Source: an uncultured Gammaproteobacteria bacterium | GTDB lineage: Bacteria > Patescibacteriota > Patescibacteriia > Magasanikbacterales > GWA2-37-8 | Direction of reading: 5' to 3' | Assembly: GCA_964482695.1 (NCBI GenBank) | Contig: CAYZYP010000002.1 | Coordinates: 46,962-110,961, forward strand | DNA: 64,000 nt | Part shown: positions 7,235-62,729 of the stretch, in pieces | Layout: the number at the start of each line of letters is the position of its first letter | Numbering within the stretch: the stretch's first letter is position 1 | Notes under the pieces: generated by a model | Databases searched by the model: none | What the model saw: the letters and a program-made list of their open reading frames with translations, nothing else | Told to the model about the DNA's origin: nothing | Program-made: the position numbers and the translations under genes

Positions 7235-7247
7235 AAATATGAAATTC

Positions 7248-7281
7248 AGATGTTCAAATATATTTGAACATCTGAATTGCG
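7248..7281. repeat. Perfect 34-bp palindrome (17-bp arms, no spacer) between the flippase and GT4 genes
   Basis: ATTCAGATGTTCAAATAT|ATATTTGAACATCTGAAT; no T-run follows, so it is an operator-like or cruciform site rather than a classic terminator. Confidence 0.5.
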
Positions 7282-9260: not shown

Positions 9261-10706
9261 TTTTAAGTCGTAACTAATTTTAGTCATTATTGCCGTTAGT
9301 AGAATAATTCCCAAAACATGAAATAAAGCCGGTGAAGTGAGATTGATAATCAAAAGAGAAATAAGCATTGCTAAAATATATCTTTTATTTTTAATCCTAT
9401 ATTTTTTTAATATTAAAAATAAAAGATTAAAAATAAAAGATAACCAAATCAAAAATCCAACCATTCCCATTTCATCAATTATTTCCAAATACCCCCAGTC
9501 AAATTGAGTAGTGGTGATTTCTTTCTTAACGACTGGGCTATAGACAGTAACCGTGTCTCCCAAACCATTTCCCCAAAGTGGTTTTTGTTTTATTTTCTCC
9601 CAAATTTTTGGCAGTAGCATCATTCTTGATAGGGAGCTTTTTTCTATTGAAGGCGAGGCAATACTGCCAATTCGTAAGCCTAATAATTCCCAACCAAAAC
9701 TTTGTCCTCGGCTGGCGGCTAAATGAATAGATGAGAAAATTAAGATAAAAATAAAAATAGAACCAAGAGAATAAATAAGCCAGCGTTTCCAATATTGACG
9801 ACTAAATAAAAATAATAATCCGATCAAATAGGCTAGAATGTAAATACGAGTGAGGTTGAGAGAGAAAATGATAAGTAAAGACAAGATAATAAAATGATAA
9901 AATATTTTATCATTTTTGTCATCCCGAGCCACAGCGAGGGATCTCTGTCCGTTCACATAAGTATAGTTGGTATTTGTAGACAGAGATTCCTCGCTTCGCT
10001 CGGAATGACAGTCCTGTCTTGCAACTATTTGATAAATAAAATACAACAACACCGGCACTAACAACAAATGTTCATTAACTACCATCCGGTAAAAATTATT
10101 ATTTAAGTCAGTTATTTTGCCGCCAACAATATTTCTAAACCAATGATAATAGCTATCTTGCAACACTAAAATGTCAGAAGAATAGCTAATAAAAGTCAGT
10201 AAAACAAAAATTACATTGCCGATAATAGCCGCGCCGAGCATGGCAAAAGCCGTTTGTTTGAATTTTTCCGAATGCCATAACTCACATAAAGGAAAATAAT
10301 ACAAAAAGAAAAAATAGGGGATAGCGTCGGCAAAAATTTGGTGTGGATTATGGCCAGCATAATAACCAAGAGTAGAAGAAATAAAAACGATTAATAAAAT
10401 AGCTGAAAAAAGATAACAGATGATCTTGCTGTCTTTAAAAATTGTTTTGTATTTTTTATTATTTATTATCTGTATTGTATAAATTATTAATGAACAAATT
10501 AACAATAACGTTCTTAATGATGTCGAGTTAATGCTAAAAACCCCGCCCGCCCCGCCCAAAATAATTTCACCGGCAATAATATACCAACCACGTTCGTCTT
10601 TTTTTAAAAGTAAGTAAACAGTTGTGGCGAGTATAATAAAAGATAGAAAATAATTTATATACGACATTTCCGGGCTAAAAAAATACGAAAAAAGACGTGT
10701 GAACAC
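9252..10706 (-). CDS. O-antigen ligase/polymerase-like (Wzy_C-type) polytopic membrane protein carrying an in-frame palindromic-element insertion
   Basis: 484 aa, many TM helices, with a periplasmic-loop motif ...WGNGLGDT... resembling Wzy_C. The segment QDCHSERSEESLSTNTNYTYVNGQRSLAVARDDKNDK is encoded by repeat copy A. Confidence 0.55.
   Translation of the reverse strand: MFTRLFSYFFSPEMSYINYFLSFIILATTVYLLLKKDERGWYIIAGEIILGGAGGVFSINSTSLRTLLLICSLIIYTIQIINNKKYKTIFKDSKIICYLFSAILLIVFISSTLGYYAGHNPHQIFADAIPYFFFLYYFPLCELWHSEKFKQTAFAMLGAAIIGNVIFVLLTFISYSSDILVLQDSYYHWFRNIVGGKITDLNNNFYRMVVNEHLLLVPVLLYFIYQIVARQDCHSERSEESLSTNTNYTYVNGQRSLAVARDDKNDKIFYHFIILSLLIIFSLNLTRIYILAYLIGLLFLFSRQYWKRWLIYSLGSIFIFILIFSSIHLAASRGQSFGWELLGLRIGSIASPSIEKSSLSRMMLLPKIWEKIKQKPLWGNGLGDTVTVYSPVVKKEITTTQFDWGYLEIIDEMGMVGFLIWLSFIFNLLFLILKKYRIKNKRYILAMLISLLIINLTSPALFHVLGIILLTAIMTKISYDLKGA
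9918..10011. repeat. RPE-like palindromic element, copy A (full), in-frame inside the ligase-like CDS
   Basis: Left arm GTCATCCCGAGCCACAGCGAGGGATCTCTGTC, ~30-nt loop, right arm GACAGAGATTCCTCGCTTCGCTCGGAATGAC; homologous to the copies at 26855 and 11441. Confidence 0.8.
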
Positions 10707-12968: not shown

Positions 12969-13138
12969 GCCAACGGAAATTAGGTACTAAATTTCTGTCG
13001 GCAATGGAAGCCCTCGGGAGGGCGACTGAGCGAACTCATAAACCGAGATTTTTTGATTGACGTTGAAGCGAAGGAGTCTTGCCGACAGAAATTTAGTACC
13101 TAATTTCCGTTGGCGCGATGGATATAATTTACGCGCGC
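12969..13138. repeat. Long-hairpin repeat family, copy b (34-bp perfect stem, 74-nt loop, conserved tail)
   Basis: Stem CCAACGGAAATTAGGTACTAAATTTCTGTCGGCAA / TTGCCGACAGAAATTTAGTACCTAATTTCCGTTGG, then tail CGCGATGGATATAATTTACGCGCGC. Confidence 0.7.
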
Positions 13139-18343: not shown

Positions 18344-18619
18344 ATGTTGGAACCATATACAGCCAAAGTCAAATTAAATCTAAAGAAAGTGCAGGGGCAA
18401 ATTAATCTGGTAAATAAGATGATCGAAGAAAAAAGATATTGTGTTGATGTGGCTCAACAGGTAAACGCGGCCATTGGTATTTTAAAACAAACTAATAATA
18501 TTATTTTGGAAAGCCATTTAAATACTTGCGCTACCAGTAAATTAAACTCAAAAAAAGCCGGTGAACGTGAAGAATTTGTCAAAGAATTGATACAGACTTT
18601 TAATGTGGCGGGGAAATAA
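18344..18619 (+). CDS. csoR: CsoR/RcnR-family metal-sensing transcriptional repressor
   Basis: 91 aa with the C...H...C ligand pattern (YCVDV....HLNTC). Confidence 0.8.
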   Translation: MLEPYTAKVKLNLKKVQGQINLVNKMIEEKRYCVDVAQQVNAAIGILKQTNNIILESHLNTCATSKLNSKKAGEREEFVKELIQTFNVAGK

Positions 18620-18650
18620 TATAAAAATAATTTATCATTATACATATACA

Positions 18651-18790
18651 TTCTCAGCATTAAATTATTTTTAGACACATCAATTTTGCCCAGCGGCAAA
18701 ATTAACTTAAGTGCTCGGCAAAAATCCCGACTAACGTCGGGACCATGCATTTTTGCCTCGCAAACTCTAAAAATAATTTAATGCTGAGAA
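18651..18790. repeat. Nested-palindrome structured repeat, copy 1 (about 96-nt conserved core inside a locus-specific 22-bp inverted repeat)
   Basis: Outer arms TTCTCAGCATTAAATTATTTTT / AAAAATAATTTAATGCTGAGAA. The core TAGACACATCAATTTTGCCCAGCGGCAAAATTAACTTAAGTGCTCGGCAAAAATCCCGACTAACGTCGGGACCATGCATTTTTGCCTCGCAAACTCT contains two sub-hairpins. Confidence 0.8.
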
Positions 18791-18808
18791 TGTAATTAAA
18801 CAAAAAAT

Positions 18809-22611: not shown

Positions 22612-23002
22612 TTATATTAAAAAATTTTACAGATAATATTTTTTTGTGGATAACTTCCATTGACCAAGAATAACTTTTCATCTAAACTATCTTTAGTTCT
22701 TTCAAATATATCAAGAGCGGTGCGAGGGAATCGGCCCGACAACCACCCAGCAACCCCCAAAGCGGGGGTGCTAATTCCGAACCCTAAATACAGGGAAAGA
22801 TAAGTTTTGTCTTGTCTACCCGCCTCTGGCGGAGACAAGGCAAAAAACGCTTTTTTAAAAAGGCCTTTTACTCTTTCTTTGTGATATATTTAGGGTAAAG
22901 GGCTTTTTTGTTTTATTATGTAAAAATTGTATTTCCATTCATAGACGGTTTAAGAATTAAAACAATTTAATTTTTAAACCGTCTATGACGGAAGGAGAAG
23001 AA

Positions 23003-33122: not shown

Positions 33123-33285
33123 CTTTTACGGTGCACCAACGAACAATATATCTTTTTTAGAAAAAAAGTAGTCGGAAAACTTTTTGCCGTAGTGAAACGT
33201 AGGCAAAAAGGCAAACGGATAACTGCTTTTTTTCTAAAAAAGATATATTGTTCGTTGGTGCGATGAATTACGTTTACGCATATTC
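33123..33285. repeat. Long-hairpin repeat family, copy c (35-bp perfect stem plus conserved tail) between atpB and atpE
   Basis: Stem CACCAACGAACAATATATCTTTTTTAGAAAAAAAG / rc, then tail CGATGAATTACGTTTACGCATATTC; the left flank CTTTTACGGTG resembles copy a. Confidence 0.7.
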
Positions 33286-37234: not shown

Positions 37235-37306
37235 ATAATAAAGATTAAAAATTAATCTCGATAATTAATATTTAATCTTTTATATTTAATATCTAAATAT
37301 TTTTAA

Positions 37307-39277: not shown

Positions 39278-39299
39278 TTAAAACAGCAGAAAAGTATAT

Positions 39300-39327
39300 A
39301 ACCCCGACCAGTTCGGGGTTATTTTTT
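39300..39327 (+). terminator. Rho-independent terminator closing the atp operon and small ORF
   Basis: AACCCCGA-ccag-TTCGGGGTT followed by ATTTTTT. Confidence 0.8.
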
Positions 39328-39336
39328 GTTTGTTAA

Positions 39337-39484
39337 TAGACATTCATATTTATCTATTACTAGACACATAGATTTTGCCCAGCGGCAAAATCTATTCAAG
39401 TGCTCGACAAAAATTTTTTCCTTCGGGAAAAAACCATGCATTTTTGCCTCGCAAGCTCTAATAATAGATGAATATGAATGTCTA
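39337..39484. repeat. Nested-palindrome structured repeat, copy 2
   Basis: Outer arms TAGACATTCATATTTATCTATTA / TAATAGATGAATATGAATGTCTA around the core TAGACACATAGATTTTGCCCAGCGGCAAAATCTATTCAAGTGCTCGACAAAAATTTTTTCCTTCGGGAAAAAACCATGCATTTTTGCCTCGCAAGCTCT. Confidence 0.8.
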
Positions 39485-41922: not shown

Positions 41923-41994
41923 ACGGGGCAAGAGGATTCGAACCTCCGACTGTGGGTTGTCAACCCACCACTCTGCCAACTGAGTTATGCCCCG
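41923..41994 (-). tRNA. tRNA-Val (anticodon GAC)
   Basis: Hand-folded cloverleaf: acceptor CGGGGCA/TGCCCCG, D stem ACTC/GAGT, anticodon stem GTGGG/CCCAC with loop TTGACAA, T arm GGAGG-TTCGAAT-CCTCT. CCA is not encoded. Confidence 0.8.
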
Positions 41995-42000
41995 AAATAA

Positions 42001-42073
42001 AGCGGGAAGCTGGATTTGAACCAGCGACATCGAGTTTAAAAACTCGCGCTCTGCCATGCTGAGCTATTCCCGC
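42001..42073 (-). tRNA. tRNA with glycine-type acceptor stem and U73 discriminator but a noncanonical anticodon loop (CGAG-TTTTTAAA-CTCG); identity uncertain
   Basis: Hand-folded: acceptor GCGGGAA/TTCCCGC plus discriminator T (identical to the E. coli tRNA-Gly acceptor), D arm GCTC-AGCATGGCA-GAGC, T arm GCTGG-TTCAAAT-CCAGC. The anticodon arm folds only as a 5-bp stem with a 6-nt loop, or a 4-bp stem with an 8-nt loop. Confidence 0.6.
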
Positions 42074-57472: not shown

Positions 57473-57540
57473 AAAGGGGATAAGTATATTTGACCTATTT
57501 CATTGATATTATATAATATAGTTAATGTCGTATAAGATAG

Positions 57541-57663
57541 ATTAAGCGACATAGTATGGTTCTTTTTTATCAAAAAATATACTCTTACTAATAGCTAACC
57601 ATACTGTGTCGCTTAATCTGCCCACGTAAAGCGACATTTTTTAAAATGTCGCTTTACGTGGGC
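57541..57663. promoter_or_regulatory. Two adjacent palindromes sharing the motif AAGCGACA(T/C) directly upstream of the xer gene; candidate dif-like site or operator
   Basis: IR1 ATTAAGCGACATAGTATGGTT...AACCATACTGTGTCGCTTAAT (57541-57617); IR2 is a perfect palindrome GCCCACGTAAAGCGACATTTT TT AAAATGTCGCTTTACGTGGGC (57620-57663). Confidence 0.5.
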
Positions 57664-57705: not shown

Positions 57706-58665
57706 ATGCACAAATCAAACCAGCCTATTACTTACCATATTCCTAATTTTTTGGATTTTTGTGAAGTGGAAAAGGGTTTGAGTCCAGTTACCACCAAAAA
57801 CTATCATAATTTCTTAAAGGTGTTCATTAACTGGCTAAAAGAGCAAAAAAAATCGCTTTTAAGGCCTCATGAACTCACTCCAGAGCATATCTGGCAGTAC
57901 CGGCTATATTTATCGCGTAAAAACGATTTAAAAGGCAAATACATCAAAAAAACCACTCAAAACTACTATCTAATAGCTTTGCGCAACATGCTAAACTATT
58001 TTGCTGAAAAAGATATCATTTCTTTGCCTTCGGACAAAATTAAATTACCTAAAATAACTGACAAAGATAAAAAAATAAAATTCTTACGTTTTGATCAATT
58101 AGAAAAATTAATGTCTATGCCAGACACTTCTAAGACCGAGGGTTTGCGTGATCGGGCGATTTTAGAAATCCTCTTCTCTACTGGTATGCGAGTTTCCGAA
58201 CTTACGTCGCTTAATATTAGATCATTTAATATTGAAAATTTAGAAAAAAATAATTTTATTGAACAAGAATTAAGTATTAGTGGCAAAGGTGGTTCTACTA
58301 GAACTATCTATTTTTCCGCAAGTGCTTTAAAGTGGTTGGCACAATACCTTAAAACCAGAAAAGACATGAACACTCCTCTATTTATCAACTATAAAAAAGA
58401 CAAAGACGATGATGAACATCGCCTTACTCCGCGCTCTGTTGAACGGATTGTCAGAAAATATGCCGTTATGGCAGGGCTGCCTGTTGATGCCACTCCGCAC
58501 ACACTTCGCCATAGTTTTGCCACTGATTTATTAGAACACGGCGCGGACGTGCGCTCGGTGCAAGAGCTATTGGGACACAAAAACATCGTTACCACGCAAA
58601 TTTATACTCATGTTACCAATCCTCACTTAAAAGATATTCATAAACGATTTCATAGTGGAACATAA
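57706..58665 (+). CDS. Tyrosine site-specific recombinase (XerC/XerD/XerH-like)
   Basis: N-terminal core-binding domain and catalytic R...HTLRHSFAT...Y region ending ...GHKNIVTTQIYTHV. Start chosen at MHKSNQPITYHIP. Confidence 0.88.
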   Translation: MHKSNQPITYHIPNFLDFCEVEKGLSPVTTKNYHNFLKVFINWLKEQKKSLLRPHELTPEHIWQYRLYLSRKNDLKGKYIKKTTQNYYLIALRNMLNYFAEKDIISLPSDKIKLPKITDKDKKIKFLRFDQLEKLMSMPDTSKTEGLRDRAILEILFSTGMRVSELTSLNIRSFNIENLEKNNFIEQELSISGKGGSTRTIYFSASALKWLAQYLKTRKDMNTPLFINYKKDKDDDEHRLTPRSVERIVRKYAVMAGLPVDATPHTLRHSFATDLLEHGADVRSVQELLGHKNIVTTQIYTHVTNPHLKDIHKRFHSGT

Positions 58666-58695
58666 AAATAAACCCCATATATATGGGGTTTATTT

Positions 58696-59739
58696 TTAAA
58701 ATTTTAAACTCGCTTCTATTATTAAATCCAACATCTTATTAAAACTAATTCCCATTTTTCCAGCTGCTTCTGGCAGTAAACTAACCGCCGTCATACCGGG
58801 AATAGTATTAGTTTCTATCACATAAAAATTACCATCATCAGCCACAAAAATATCTGTTCTAGACATCCCTCTGCAACCCAAAACTTGGTGCGCCTTAACC
58901 GCGATAACTTGCAATTTTTTATTTACAGTTGGCGAAAAATCGGCTGGACAAATATGGGTAGAACCGCCTTCGTCGTATTTTGACTTATAATCATAAAATT
59001 TACCTTTATTGGCGATTATTCTTGTTGGCGGCAAGGCAAAAGGAATGCCGTTTTTTTCTAACACGCCACAAGTCGCTTCTTTGCCTTTAACAAACTTCTG
59101 CGCCATTAGATAAGAAAAATTTTTAAATGTACTTTCTATTATTTTAACCATTTCTTTTTCCGTGTTAACTATAGAAACCCCCACAGCCGAACCTTGATCA
59201 ACTGGCTTAATAACAACTGGAAAACCAATTTTCTTAATAATTTCTTTAATTAATTGTTTTTTATCTTTTAGCCACTCTATTTTTTGAAAATCTATAAAAT
59301 CCGGGGTTAACAAACCGTGCGCTCGATATATTTCCGCGGTTTTGGCTTTATTCATGGCCAAAGCGCTGGCTAACACTCTGGAGCCAGTATAAGGCACGTT
59401 TAAACACTCTAGTAAGCCTTGTAAGCAACCGTCTTCGCCGTAAGTGCCGTGCAAAGCAATAAAAATTAAATCTAATTTTGTAGCGCTTAAATTATAATTA
59501 TCTTGGCTTGTTGTGATGGAAAAACTTTCTTGCTGTTTTTTGTCGCCGTACTTAATTGATTTTAAATCTCCACTATTAAGCAAAATCATTTTACCGTCTT
59601 TGGACATCTCTATTGGAATAATTTCATATTTCTGATTATCTAAATTTTCTGTTACCGCTCTACCGGTAATTAAAGAAATCTCTCGTTCTGCCGAAGGACC
59701 GCCCATCAATACGCCAATACGTAATTTTTGTTTAGACAT
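58696..59739 (-). CDS. ddl: D-alanine--D-alanine ligase
   Basis: ATP-grasp motifs and the conserved EDGCLQGLLE, FPVVIKP and ETNTIPG. Start chosen at MSKQKLRIGVLMGG. Confidence 0.92.
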   Translation of the reverse strand: MSKQKLRIGVLMGGPSAEREISLITGRAVTENLDNQKYEIIPIEMSKDGKMILLNSGDLKSIKYGDKKQQESFSITTSQDNYNLSATKLDLIFIALHGTYGEDGCLQGLLECLNVPYTGSRVLASALAMNKAKTAEIYRAHGLLTPDFIDFQKIEWLKDKKQLIKEIIKKIGFPVVIKPVDQGSAVGVSIVNTEKEMVKIIESTFKNFSYLMAQKFVKGKEATCGVLEKNGIPFALPPTRIIANKGKFYDYKSKYDEGGSTHICPADFSPTVNKKLQVIAVKAHQVLGCRGMSRTDIFVADDGNFYVIETNTIPGMTAVSLLPEAAGKMGISFNKMLDLIIEASLKF

Positions 59740-59862: not shown

Positions 59863-61095
59863 TTATTTCAAATATCCCAATGGATCTACCGGTATGCCAC
59901 TCGCGCGCACTTCAAAGTGTAAATGCGGACCAGTGACAAACGGCCCGGCGCCAACCGTGCCTGGCGTGCCACCGGAATAACCAATAATATCTCCTGTATT
60001 TACATACTGATCAGCGCTAACAGTAATTTTGCTTAAGTGGCCATAAAGAGTGGACAAATTACCAGTGTGTACGATTAAAACATAAGCATAGCAAGAAGCA
60101 GCGGAACATGTTCTGGCGCGCGCTATATAGCCAGAAGCGGCCGCTTGAATAGGCGTACCTTGAGAAGCGCGCAAATCCATACCACTATGCTCAAAAACAT
60201 AGCGATAGGGGTAATCCGGATCGTGAAAATAAGAGGTAATATAATGACTTGGTGTTGGCCAAATTAAAGTGGTTGGACCACTAGTAGAATATTTGTCTTT
60301 TTCCGCTAATTTTTTTTGTACTTCTCTTTCATAACTACGCACTTCGTTTTCTATAGCCTGATACTGTTGCCTTAAACTGCTGACCAAAGTTTTGTATTGC
60401 CATTCCGAAGAAACGGTTTGAGTTAATAAATTTTCTTTAACATTGGTCTGATCGGATAAATTCAATCTTTTTTGTTCTAAATCTGTTTTTAATTTTTCAT
60501 AATCAGCTTTAATTTTGTCTTGCTCGGTTTTTTTGGTTTCTAAATCTGTTTTTGCCAAACGCAAACTTTTTAAAGAACGCCCCAAATCTTGTTGCAAAGT
60601 TTCTAACTGCTGAACTTCGGTATAAAAATCAGAAAAAGTATTGTTAGTTAACATGACTGTTAAATAATTTTTATTCTGTTCGCGGTTAAGATCGCGAATC
60701 ATTTTAGTAATAATTGTTTTTTGACGTTCAATCACTGTTTCTTTTTCTTTAATACTTAATTTTAAAGAATCAATTTCTAATTGTGTTTTTTTAATTTTTT
60801 CTTCTGTTAACAAAATATCTGTTTTAATTTTATCTATATGGTCGCCTAAAATACTTAGTTGGTTTCTTAACGAAGTAGCTTCTAATTGCTTTTGTTTAAT
60901 GCTTTGGTTGTATTTATTAATAGTGTCTTCTAGTTGTTTAATTTTATCTTTTTTTTCGTCTATTTTTTTATTTAAATCGGTAATTTCATCCGCAGTAGTT
61001 GTAGCTGTGGCTGATAAAGGATTAAATACAAAAAAACATTGGGTAAGTAATGTAAAAATTATAACTAGGCTGATAATTTTTGAAAATTTTCGCAT
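59863..61095 (-). CDS. M23/LytM-family metallopeptidase with a long N-terminal coiled coil (EnvC-like)
   Basis: Signal peptide, ~250 aa of coiled coil, then HTGNLSTLYGHLS...GPHLHFEVR. The ORF-track start at 61161 falls inside a repeat; the Met at 61095 precedes the signal peptide. Confidence 0.85.
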   Translation of the reverse strand: MRKFSKIISLVIIFTLLTQCFFVFNPLSATATTTADEITDLNKKIDEKKDKIKQLEDTINKYNQSIKQKQLEATSLRNQLSILGDHIDKIKTDILLTEEKIKKTQLEIDSLKLSIKEKETVIERQKTIITKMIRDLNREQNKNYLTVMLTNNTFSDFYTEVQQLETLQQDLGRSLKSLRLAKTDLETKKTEQDKIKADYEKLKTDLEQKRLNLSDQTNVKENLLTQTVSSEWQYKTLVSSLRQQYQAIENEVRSYEREVQKKLAEKDKYSTSGPTTLIWPTPSHYITSYFHDPDYPYRYVFEHSGMDLRASQGTPIQAAASGYIARARTCSAASCYAYVLIVHTGNLSTLYGHLSKITVSADQYVNTGDIIGYSGGTPGTVGAGPFVTGPHLHFEVRASGIPVDPLGYLK

Positions 61096-61126
61096 AAGTT
61101 TTATAATTTTTATAATTTGTTGATAA

Positions 61127-61259
61127 TATCTTTTTTTGGAGTTTGCGAGGCAAAATTGCACGGCTCCCCGACTCAGTCGGGGAAATTTTGTCGAGCACTT
61201 AAGTCAATTTTGTCGCTGGACAAAATTGACGTGTCTAAAAAAAGATGTTATCAACAAAT
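61127..61259. repeat. Nested-palindrome structured repeat, copy 3 (reverse orientation); the outer right arm overlaps the last codons of gltX
   Basis: Outer arms TTTGTTGATAATATCTTTTTTT / AAAAAAAGATGTTATCAACAAA around the reverse complement of the same ~90-nt core. Confidence 0.8.
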
Positions 61260-62729
61260 ATTAAATTTTTTAACTGCTGATTTTATTCTTCGTAAACTTT
61301 CTTCTTTGCCAAGAACATCGGCTATTTCAAATGGCCCGGGAGATTTTTCTAAACCAGACAAAATTACTCTAAATGGCCACAAAACACTGCCATTATTATA
61401 GCCATTTTCTTTTACCCACTCCCCTATTCGTTTTTTTAGGATATCTTTGTTCCATTCTTTTTCACTAAAACTATCTAGTAAATTTTCTAAAGCTGGTAAA
61501 ATTTCCTTTAATTCGTTAGCAGAACTTTTTTTCCAAATCAATAATTCTGGCTGATAATCCGGCAATTTAAATATAAACTCTATCGCGCTCGGCAATTCGG
61601 ATAAAATCGCTATCCGTTCTCTTTCCAAAGACACTGCTTTGGTTAACAATTCACTTTTTTCAGCTATTTTTTCTAACCATGGCCAAGCTTTTTCTACCAA
61701 TTCGCTATCACTCAACTTCTTGATATATTGTTTATTATACCACGCTAGCTTATCCATGTTAAATATCGCACCAGCTTTGCCCACTTTTTCCAAATCAAAC
61801 TCACTCACCAGCTCTTTTAAAGTAAACAATTCCCTATCATCACCGGGATTCCAACCTAAAAAGGCGACAAAATTAATTAACGCTTCTGGCAAATAACCTT
61901 TTTTAATATAATCTTCTACCGCCACATCGCCTTGACGCTTGCTTAACTTTGATTTATCTGAATTAAGTAGTAGTGGCAGGTGTGCCATTTGAGGAATTTC
62001 CCAACCAAAATATTTGTAAAGCTGAATATGTTTTGGCACGCTTGAAATCCATTCTTCACCGCGAATAATGTGTGATACTTCCATTAGATGATCGTCGACA
62101 ACAACTGCAAGATGATAAGTTGGGTAACCATCCGATTTTAAAATAACTTGATCATCAATTAATTCATTTTTAATTTTTACTTCACCGCGAATCAGATCTT
62201 TAAAAATAGTTTCGCCGGTTTTTGGCATTTTCATTCGCACGACGTATTTTCCACCAGCAGAAATTCTTTTTTTAGCTTCTTCTAAATTTATTTCACGACA
62301 ATGGCCATCATAGCCGGTAGGCAATTTTTTCTTTTGCTGGCGATCACGTAATTCTGTTAATCTTTCGGGAGTACAAAAACAATAATAGGCGTGGCCTTTT
62401 TCTAAAAGCTCGTTAACATATTTTTTATAAATATCTAATCGTTCTGATTGGATGTACGAACCGTTTTCCCCTTCTTGTATTGTTTGGCACTCCCCTGTTG
62501 ACTCATAATCTAATTTTACTCCTTCATCTGGCATGATGCCTGCCCAATAAAGAGATTTTAAAATATTAGTAACACCATCAGCTACAAAACGTTCGCGATC
62601 GGTATCTTCAATTCGTAATAAAAACTTACCACCATTTTTTTTGGCGAATAAATATGAATACAGCGCGGTGCGCAGACCGCCTATGTGCAAGTAACCGGTT
62701 GGGCTGGGGGCAAAACGAGTTTTAATCAT
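61251..62729 (-). CDS. gltX: Glutamyl-tRNA synthetase
   Basis: Motifs RFAPSPTGYLHIGG (HIGH) and KLSKR (KMSKS). Confidence 0.95.
   Translation of the reverse strand: MIKTRFAPSPTGYLHIGGLRTALYSYLFAKKNGGKFLLRIEDTDRERFVADGVTNILKSLYWAGIMPDEGVKLDYESTGECQTIQEGENGSYIQSERLDIYKKYVNELLEKGHAYYCFCTPERLTELRDRQQKKKLPTGYDGHCREINLEEAKKRISAGGKYVVRMKMPKTGETIFKDLIRGEVKIKNELIDDQVILKSDGYPTYHLAVVVDDHLMEVSHIIRGEEWISSVPKHIQLYKYFGWEIPQMAHLPLLLNSDKSKLSKRQGDVAVEDYIKKGYLPEALINFVAFLGWNPGDDRELFTLKELVSEFDLEKVGKAGAIFNMDKLAWYNKQYIKKLSDSELVEKAWPWLEKIAEKSELLTKAVSLERERIAILSELPSAIEFIFKLPDYQPELLIWKKSSANELKEILPALENLLDSFSEKEWNKDILKKRIGEWVKENGYNNGSVLWPFRVILSGLEKSPGPFEIADVLGKEESLRRIKSAVKKFNIC

Follow-up and report, generated by a model that had tools for sequence, protein, structure and literature searches.

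A conserved three-way-junction module within copy-specific palindromes of a groundwater Magasanikbacteria genome, a candidate insertion element

Introduction

Among the small structured intergenic repeats of bacteria, the Correia (CREE), ERIC, RUP/BOX and bcr1-type repeats are 100-170 nt long, non-coding, multi-copy and lineage-restricted, form stable hairpins and are often co-transcribed with their neighbours, and such structured families resembling miniature transposable elements with inverted repeats (MITEs) have been reviewed (PMC2229807, PMC3184786). Here we describe three copies of a non-coding module of ~100 bases, folding as a three-way junction, in a 64-kb stretch of DNA (the window) from a groundwater Candidatus Magasanikbacteria (Patescibacteria, candidate phyla radiation, CPR), where each copy is bracketed by a long inverted repeat of its own. 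In behaviour the module comes closest to these small repeats and to palindrome-targeted insertions, and it is a member of no named family. The Correia, ERIC, RUP/BOX and bcr1 repeats have the same terminal inverted repeats in every copy and usually a fixed target duplication, whereas here only 4-5 terminal bases are common (TAGA/TCTA) and the long inverted repeats are copy-specific, so that the uniform termini of a classical MITE are absent.

Insertion sequences (ISs) are known to insert into repetitive extragenic palindromes (REPs), and even ssr9, the solo small-RNA module of ISPpu9 (IS110 family, Pseudomonas putida), does so (PMC12288879, PMC1525189). The likeness to ssr9 lies in a small, structured, non-coding solo module inside an extragenic palindrome, in palindrome halves that flank it as inverted repeats and in an enzyme encoded elsewhere. 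The geometry fits, as the core stands exactly on the symmetry axis, and the two are likened by geometry, the available sequence holding no IS110-type transposase. The REP targets, however, are one family recognised by sequence, whereas each palindrome here is unique. Elements derived from IS200/IS605 and associated with palindromes, as well as REP/REPIN-RAYT systems, resemble the module in having hairpins near both ends, no terminal inverted repeats and a single-strand fold as the likely recognised form, but they acquire no inverted flanks, and neither a Y1 transposase nor a RAYT was seen in the available sequence. A family of palindromes tagged with GTAG/CGTC, as in REPs and REPINs, is likewise lacking, the arms being unique and without a common tag.

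Integron attC sites are also imperfect, locus-specific palindromes at gene ends and act as folded single strands with a strand preference. Their architecture is nevertheless the inverse, with conserved outer R''/R' sites and a variable centre where the module has a conserved centre and variable arms; we found no RYYYAAC/GTTRRRY outer sites, no array and no intI, and the neighbours are housekeeping genes in conserved synteny. At the DNA level, template-switch mutagenesis of quasi-palindromes perfects or extends arms and so yields locus-unique Watson-Crick arms (PMC7202029, PMC3820800, PMC8604942), but the known events involve few bases and are not described as building 22-26-bp arms round an inserted module. 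The elements belong to no Rfam family and are not intrinsic terminators. Perfect but copy-specific palindromic flanks break the recognition rules for MITEs, REPs and attC, so that standard repeat finders would overlook the module, and the mobile and repetitive DNA of CPR/Patescibacteria is almost uncharacterised.

Results and Discussion

Three copies of one fold

An earlier note, made from the letters of the window alone, had reported three copies of the module with the third reversed, and direct reading and alignment found all of them again. They are base-for-base identical in JGI 3300009296, ENA ERZ909575 and ERZ909578 and Logan SRR5855239, and this agreement of independent assemblies excludes an assembly artefact. 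All three share a common architecture of helices P1, P2 and P3 around a three-way junction, and their parts are as follows.

18647-18794, minus (better-folding strand): copy 1, whole element (arms and core)
18647-18671 / 18770-18794: copy 1, copy-specific arms, 25/25 paired, 29/29 including the common TAGA/TCTA
18672-18769, minus: copy 1, conserved core, TAGACAC...CTCTA on the plus strand
18679-18706: copy 1, P3 hairpin, 12 bp, loop GCUG/CAGC
18712-18762: copy 1, P2 with tandem GA/GA internal loop and 7-nt bulge AUGCAUG
18726-18741: copy 1, variable tip hairpin of P2
39337-39484, minus (better-folding strand): copy 2, whole element
39337-39360 / 39461-39484: copy 2, copy-specific arms, the 28-nt arms being 93% complementary
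39361-39460, minus: copy 2, conserved core
61115-61259, plus: copy 3, whole element, in the opposite orientation to copies 1 and 2
61115-61136 / 61238-61259: copy 3, copy-specific arms, 24/26 paired including the common 4 bp
61137-61237, plus: copy 3, conserved core

The core is 98-101 nt long, is 82-89% identical between copies outside the variable hairpin and, on the strand drawn in the earlier note, starts with TAGACAC and finishes with GCCTCGCAA(A/G)CTC(T/C)A. The long closing stem P1 is made of the arms and TTAGA/TCTAA, and the junction strands measure 3, 5 and 3 nt. In P2 a symmetric GA/GA internal loop separates 3 bp from a 7-9-bp helix (GGCAAAAAU/AUUUUUGCC), which is followed by a 7-nt bulge (AUGCAUG in copies 1 and 2, UUGCACG in copy 3) and a tip hairpin, and P3 is a 12-bp hairpin with the conserved tetraloop GCUG, which is CAGC on the other strand, where CAGCG had been read before. 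The tip hairpin had been described as completely different between copies, which overstates the case: CCCGAC/GTCGGG is common to copies 1 and 3, and only in copy 2 has it been swapped wholesale, for UUUUUUCC-CGAA-GGAAAAAA. Folding energies of the whole elements range from -54 to -77 kcal/mol; measured against dinucleotide shuffles, this gives z-scores between -8.9 and -14.9.

In the alignment of the three sequences 99.1% of cells form standard pairs, and sliding the registers by 1-3 columns leaves only 36-55% paired. Pairs changed on both sides number 10, as against 3.9 +/- 1.5 in column shuffles, and none of 500 shuffles reached 10. Pairwise divergence outside P1 and the tip hairpin amounts to 8, 8 and 13 of 73 columns; within the conserved helices of P2 and P3 the varying columns are 11 of the 48 paired versus 3 of the 25 unpaired, and each varying pair still pairs. 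Selection on secondary structure, as proposed in the earlier note, is thus borne out by compensatory changes in both conserved helices, with no pair broken on one strand. As the stems co-vary while the bases of junction, bulge and loop are fixed, the fold is what selection sees: over these three sequences the fold is under selection and its loops and junctions are constrained in sequence.

No reading frame of the core is conserved across the copies. In the conserved bulge an antisense GAGG-N5-ATG (TTG in copy 3) opens frames of 98, 16 and 81 codons, which have ~25 residues in common, the frame of copy 2 stopping after 16 codons. An alignment of the peptides from these antisense frames and a concatenation of all 18 frame translations were searched against 5.8 billion predicted proteins, and no spurious open reading frames (ORFs) lying over other copies were met. 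A small protein-coding gene was accordingly rejected, given the lack of conservation of the frames, the stop in copy 2 and the absence of any matching predicted protein. The antisense frames at 18750-18454 (minus) and 61156-61398 (plus) run beyond the element and are called as a gene in no assembly.

Arms unique to each locus

The arms were obtained from a search of the window for inverted repeats. The full arms are 29 nt in copy 1 (18647-18675/18766-18794, 100%), 28 nt in copy 2 (39337-39364/39457-39484, 93%, 26/28 pairs) and, untrimmed, 40 nt in copy 3 (61101-61140/61234-61273, 83%), where a separate scan trimmed them to the solid 26-nt part at 61115-61140/61234-61259 (24/26 pairs). The innermost 4 bp are common to all copies (TAGA/TCTA, with TGGA/TCTA in copy 3), and the copy-specific part measures 25 bp in copy 1, 24-26 bp in copy 2 and 22 bp in copy 3. 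Allowing up to 3 mismatches, each arm is found in the window solely at its own locus (shuffles expect 0.00), in agreement with the near-perfect, locus-unique inverted repeats first described around the core. Arms of different copies are no more similar to each other than shuffled sequence (p > 0.5), approximate matching found no counterpart of them in related loci, and IMG/VR holds no exact match.

Their spacer-like length of 22-26 nt, together with their being unique and mutually unrelated, recalls guide storage, in which the arms would be acquired guide or spacer sequences kept in hairpins, the core would serve as a handle and the duplex would be processed to guides against foreign DNA. We find this hardly credible, as the arms are unmatched in IMG/VR, elsewhere in the window and in related loci, the copies are dispersed among housekeeping genes instead of standing in an array, no nuclease gene is associated with them and one of the arms belongs to the reading frame of gltX.

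Intrinsic terminators, which the earlier note had offered as an example of the outer palindromes, were rejected as well. No terminator is formed by the arms on either strand and no T-run follows any arm, while copy 2 lies behind a separate canonical terminator (39298-39322); the sole terminator-like site inside any element is the tip hairpin of copy 3. With a core that is 82-89% identical and arms that are unrelated yet near-perfectly Watson-Crick, ordinary compensatory divergence of the arms is ruled out, and they must therefore have pre-existed or been templated at the DNA level. The arms pair perfectly in Watson-Crick fashion, are unrelated from copy to copy and are missing in relatives, and we infer from this that they are DNA-level palindromes and not evolved RNA helices.

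Insertion between gltX and the M23 peptidase gene

Copy 3 lies between the genes for GltX and an M23 peptidase (Pfam). The 23 closest gltX loci were compared, and in ~18 of them gltX is immediately followed by the M23 peptidase gene, across a spacer of 20-60 nt which holds a TGnTATAAT box ~6 nt before the M23 ATG, and most of these spacers have no palindrome. The closest relative (Logan SRR22387810, 84% GltX identity) reads ...ATT ATA AAA TTA TAA CCAATT ATG C... at this junction, with a spacer of 6 nt and neither arms nor core. In the window, gltX runs three extra codons into the copy 3 arm 61238-61259, which codes for the final codons N-I-C-stop of GltX and contains the stop codon (61253-61251, minus strand), and the M23 ATG at 61095 stands 19 nt beyond the other arm. 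The sequence immediately after this other arm, ATTATAAAAATTATAAAACTTATGCG, matches the closest relative in an alignment that spans the end of gltX, the spacer and the ATG (p ~0.003 against random window segments). From the short, element-free junction of the relatives it follows that ~145-160 nt were gained in this lineage, and copy 3 is thus a lineage-specific insertion of arms and core together and not an old terminator that was invaded. The idea of insertion into a palindrome already in place, put forward in the earlier note, stands as to the insertion, which the short and element-free orthologous spacers confirm, and stays conjectural as to the palindrome, since no orthologous site showed an empty one and the relatives, the closest included, have neither arms nor core at copy 3.

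A direct repeat of 10/12 at copy 3 (possibly a 12-15-nt repeat, p ~0.04) may mean that part of the junction stands on both sides, and the alignment to the closest relative (p ~0.003) supports it; copy 1 has a weak one (7/8 to 8/10, p ~0.07) and copy 2 has none, and for this reason a target duplication is not established. A TA at the boundary of core and arm is compatible with all copies, but is uninformative in AT-rich DNA.

Other features of this junction were noted in relatives. In related Magasanikbacteria the TGnTATAAT box stands right behind the gltX stop and ~6 nt before the M23 start (e.g. L011:11468-11495), which suggests leaderless M23 transcripts. Two related loci (L021 and L044) have in common another long imperfect hairpin (TAGAAC..GTTCTA) at the junction, and a third (L026) has a 24-bp AT-rich hairpin.

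A palindrome-rich genome

Hairpins without the core were counted if their arms had 17 nt or more, paired at 90% or above and enclosed a loop no longer than 10 nt. Six were found in the 64 kb, or 9.4 per 100 kb versus 1.5 in GC-matched relatives (~six-fold), and none in 30 first-order Markov simulations. Six is likewise the number of inverted repeats in the window whose arms reach 20 nt or more around a loop of 30-200 nt, while 1.28 Mb of sequence from relatives contains 19; the six include the three copies and the repeats at 12969-13114 and 33133-33261. The coreless palindromes, with arms of 17-28 nt, and two long inverted repeats with unrelated centres are listed below.

7241-7280: coreless palindrome, loopless and perfect
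9379-9442: coreless hairpin, within a Wzy-type gene
22939-22988: coreless palindrome
37240-37280: coreless palindrome
57620-57663: coreless palindrome
58663-58698: coreless palindrome, loopless and perfect
12969-13114: long inverted repeat, 36/36, with a 74-nt structured apical region, between two minus-strand genes
33133-33261: long inverted repeat, 39/40, with a 49-nt apical region holding the hairpin CTTTTTGCC...GGCAAAAAG

The arm lengths of the coreless palindromes (17-28 nt) bracket those of the occupied ones (22-26 nt), and the T-run/A-run apex of copies 1 and 3 is seen in several of them. For the repeat at 12969-13114 the folding energy is -75 to -78 kcal/mol on both strands, and the one at 33133-33261 lies within the atp operon, between atpB and atpE; the apical regions of both bear no likeness to the core and have no Rfam match. 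Long perfect palindromes, with and without the core, are therefore a lineage-specific feature of this genome, and several assemblies of the organism have contig breaks at the elements and at the other long palindromes.

Two apparent links involving these repeats and one supposed special motif were discarded. The common 3' flank GCGATG..TTTACGC of 12969-13114 and 33133-33261 is not significant by BLAST, ATCTTTTTTAGA, which seemed to link an arm of the 33133 repeat to copy 3, is made of words common in the genome, and TTTTGCC/GGCAAAA is frequent all over the window. As separate observations, the ENA and Logan contigs L008 and L009 begin in the 3' arm of 33133-33261, so that the repeat breaks assemblies, and the palindrome 58663-58698 contains the stop codons of both convergent genes.

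Search for further copies

A covariance model of the core was built from the three copies, which themselves score 118-123 bits. In the unfiltered window the next best hit has 15 bits and no degenerate copies exist; 80 related CPR genomes, searched over 1.28 Mb around gltX, gave no copy either, the best hit (21.8 bits) being a lone hairpin, and none lies in the ~19 kb that flank the window in other assemblies. An exact-pattern scan of the core gave no match in 185,579 GTDB species representatives, four matches in JGI metagenome contigs, all by chance in G+C-rich coding DNA, and in IMG/VR no copy, only two isolated hairpin matches. The window's own JGI contig was itself missing from the hits in the JGI collection, whose result thus says little on close relatives. 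Phage and plasmid collections, searched with the core by BLAST, held no match. Rfam at gathering thresholds returned nothing at the three loci, and at E <= 10, where no ribozyme family came up, the best score was 20 bits (thresholds 43-122). As the closest GTDB genome has only 73% GltX identity, these results mean that the module is not in sampled relatives at genus-plus distance, and not that it is unique on Earth. The lack of additional copies, which the earlier note had named as a ground for refutation, speaks in part against a widely conserved small RNA, and the reality of the three copies is unaffected by it.

How core and arms may have come together

The explanation we favour, as a possible though not quite a probable one, is that of a lineage-restricted, non-coding and non-autonomous module which inserts at the symmetry centre of AT-rich palindromes. 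Such a module would integrate at the exact centre, possibly at a central TA or at a T-run/A-run apex, and the palindrome halves would then extend its own 4-5-bp closing stem (TTAGA/TCTAA) continuously. The fold would most likely be the surface recognised, as RNA or as single-stranded DNA, by the machinery that copies or moves it. Integration at palindrome centres is favoured because coreless palindromes with a similar range of arms (17-28 nt) and a similar apex are abundant here, because the boundary of core and arm is exactly symmetric, and because palindrome-targeting ISs and a solo small-RNA module in REPs are documented.

Several results weigh against this explanation. No gene for a transposase, a reverse transcriptase or an HUH enzyme occurs in the 64 kb and the ~19 kb of flanks (Pfam), no target-site duplication is consistent across the three copies, and no empty site was seen, all assemblies of the population carrying the element. 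We infer the pre-existing palindromes, and the relatives at the copy 3 site have none, so that a palindrome would need to arise there first. At 12969-13114 and 33133-33261 stand two more long inverted repeats with unrelated centres, and these a single palindrome-seeking module leaves unexplained. The ~83 kb available from this organism yielded no further copy, nor did any other sequence searched, and with three copies and none further the mobility of the module is drawn from its distribution and not from events observed.

The same loci can be read with a module that is equally mobile but whose arms were made during or after insertion by intramolecular template switching: the short closing stem of the core would nucleate a hairpin on the nascent strand, one flank would be copied inverted and the stem would gain 20-25 bp, and switching on other hairpin nuclei would yield the other long perfect palindromes of the genome. 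The 29/29 Watson-Crick pairs in the arms of copy 1, with no strand-specific wobble bias, are a DNA-level signature that suits this route, as do the 36/36 and 39/40 repeats around unrelated apices, the loopless palindromes at 7241-7280 and 58663-58698, the lineage-specific, ~six-fold excess of palindromes and the fact that neither arm is present in relatives where copy 3 stands. In its outer half, the downstream arm of copy 3 can moreover be aligned to the native junction of the closest relative (ATTATCAACAAATTAT vs ATTATAACCAATTAT), though in sequence of low complexity, and template switching that extends or homogenises the arms of inverted repeats is documented (PMC7202029, PMC3820800, PMC8604942). 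The documented quasi-palindrome events, however, fix few bases and we found no precedent for an extension by 22-26 bp that recurs with similar length at three loci, no arm can be demonstrated to be an ancestral flank, the alignment at copy 3 is ambiguous, and the spread of the core itself would still need explaining. We hold the template-switching route to be unlikely, if a serious contender.

Under either mechanism the module could be an undescribed kind of bacterial insertion element, in which integration is coupled to a perfect inverted repeat that differs from copy to copy, through structure-directed insertion or through self-built arms; that such a class is at hand here we consider somewhat doubtful. 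If it were, the element would recognise the geometric centre of unrelated palindromes, being directed by structure and not by sequence, or would manufacture its own long stem by inverted copying of one flank, and its functional core would be a conserved three-way junction of RNA or single-stranded DNA, so far known from one CPR lineage. Targeted arms would be an example of structure-directed integration; generated arms would be a case of template switching that builds sizeable palindromes in a natural genome.

A Xer-like tyrosine recombinase was tried as the enzyme of the element and rejected, as it is single-copy and resident in a fixed context. Its gene (57706-58665) is preceded by two adjacent long hairpins (57539-57663) which hold AAGCGACA four times. 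At ~57-58.7 kb the gene orientation and the GC skew switch, and several assemblies break at ~57.43 kb; this may mark an autoregulatory site or else a terminus or dif-like region.

Strand, transcription and gene context

All nine non-Watson-Crick pairs of the core alignment are G-U on the strand antisense to the genes and A-C on the strand drawn in the earlier note, and a conservative mismatch count over whole elements gives 6-7 in favour of antisense vs 1. The antisense strand is also more stable by 8-16 kcal/mol in every copy, so that the reverse complement of the strand first drawn is the one that folds better, and the tandem G-A loop reads on it. These features are suggestive of the antisense strand as the one that matters (two-sided p ~0.07-0.12 on independent events), with a wobble count that is small and partly biased, as the structure had been derived on that strand. 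GC skew tracks gene orientation in the window, which makes replication and transcription bias in the orientation of the elements inseparable.

The better antisense folding, the wobbles (9 vs 0 in the core, 6-7 vs 1 conservatively), the G-A loop and the invariant loops and junctions amid varying stems would all be in place if the copies were paralogous genes for a trans-acting small RNA of ~145 nt, antisense to the neighbours, whose junction binds a protein partner and whose long closing stem need only be double-stranded, for stability or for RNase III processing. Promoter-like sites just outside the arm, at two of the copies, point the same way.

61080-61107, plus: promoter-like TTGAAA-16-TATAAT, 11/12, pointing into copy 3 on its better-folding strand (weak evidence)
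18834-18806, minus: promoter-like site, 9/12, pointing into copy 1

Copy 2, however, has no promoter-like site pointing into it on the antisense strand, and none of the copies is followed by a terminator on either strand. The 80 related genomes and Rfam gave no homologue, although a functional RNA with several copies per 64 kb should be conserved at genus level or beyond, the wobble count carries the small numbers and the bias just described, and gradual compensatory change cannot randomise 25 bp and yet leave 29/29 pairs beside a core of 82-89% identity. We regard the small-RNA reading as improbable.

The genes around the copies bear on the opposite strand. Pfam confirmed the position of the three copies at gene ends, as first reported (csoR and a copper gene, the atp end and an ABC transporter gene, M23 and gltX); all three loci are short spacers between co-directional housekeeping genes, which have received the module on at least three occasions, and the orientation relative to the flanking genes is identical in the three copies. 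Copy 1 has the csoR stop at 18619 on one side and on the other the ATG (18809) of an HMA/cupredoxin gene, followed by a P-type ATPase gene; this start codon is 14 nt from the element, no promoter of its own being obvious. Copy 2 has AtpC with its own terminator on one side and an ABC transporter on the other; it starts 14 nt downstream of the canonical atp operon terminator, and the start of the ABC transporter gene (39571) is 86 nt past it. Transcription of the gene strand is certain at copy 3, where gltX terminates within the arm, and probable at copy 1, which lies inside the string of genes from csoR to copper export, 14 nt from an ATG.

The copies might instead act in cis, as mRNA hairpins on the gene strand for RNase III processing or for protection of 3' ends between cistrons, comparable to co-transcribed REP/BIME or Correia elements, a role that would explain why they are retained. 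The uniform orientation relative to the flanking genes, the termination of gltX inside the copy 3 arm and the place of copy 1 inside a likely csoR to copper-export operon, 14 nt before a start codon, agree with it. On the gene strand, however, ten cells of the core are A-C mismatches and the fold is weaker by 8-16 kcal/mol, a plain hairpin would suffice and the conserved three-way junction goes unexplained, copy 2 lies behind a terminator, and agreement of all three orientations has a chance probability of 0.25. As the account of what the elements are it is distinctly improbable, and an effect on mRNA processing is plausible as a consequence. Under the favoured explanation of insertion at palindrome centres, transcripts crossing a copy would as a side effect carry a double-stranded RNA stem of at least 25 bp between cistrons, which would be a likely site for RNase III or for control of stability, and such 25-bp stems in the csoR/copper-export operon, at the atp operon end and at gltX may affect expression.

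Other features of the window and of related contigs

A GltX-AtpG fusion protein (P0002) was considered as a sign of rearrangement and discarded as an assembly chimera, its break lying inside gltX and not at the element. JGI Ga0103682_10042682 (1857-2584) looks chimeric: it joins 82% of this GltX with an unrelated ATP synthase gamma ORF and breaks at 61527. JGI Ga0103681_1002957 (1-1900) also looks chimeric and carries, past ClpB, genes of archaeal type (ribosomal L21e, Rpb4). In the window itself, a SAM (S-adenosylmethionine) riboswitch was identified at 22705-22806 (55.6 bits), with a 23-bp hairpin ~130 nt after it, and two adjacent tRNA genes lie on the minus strand at 41923-42073.

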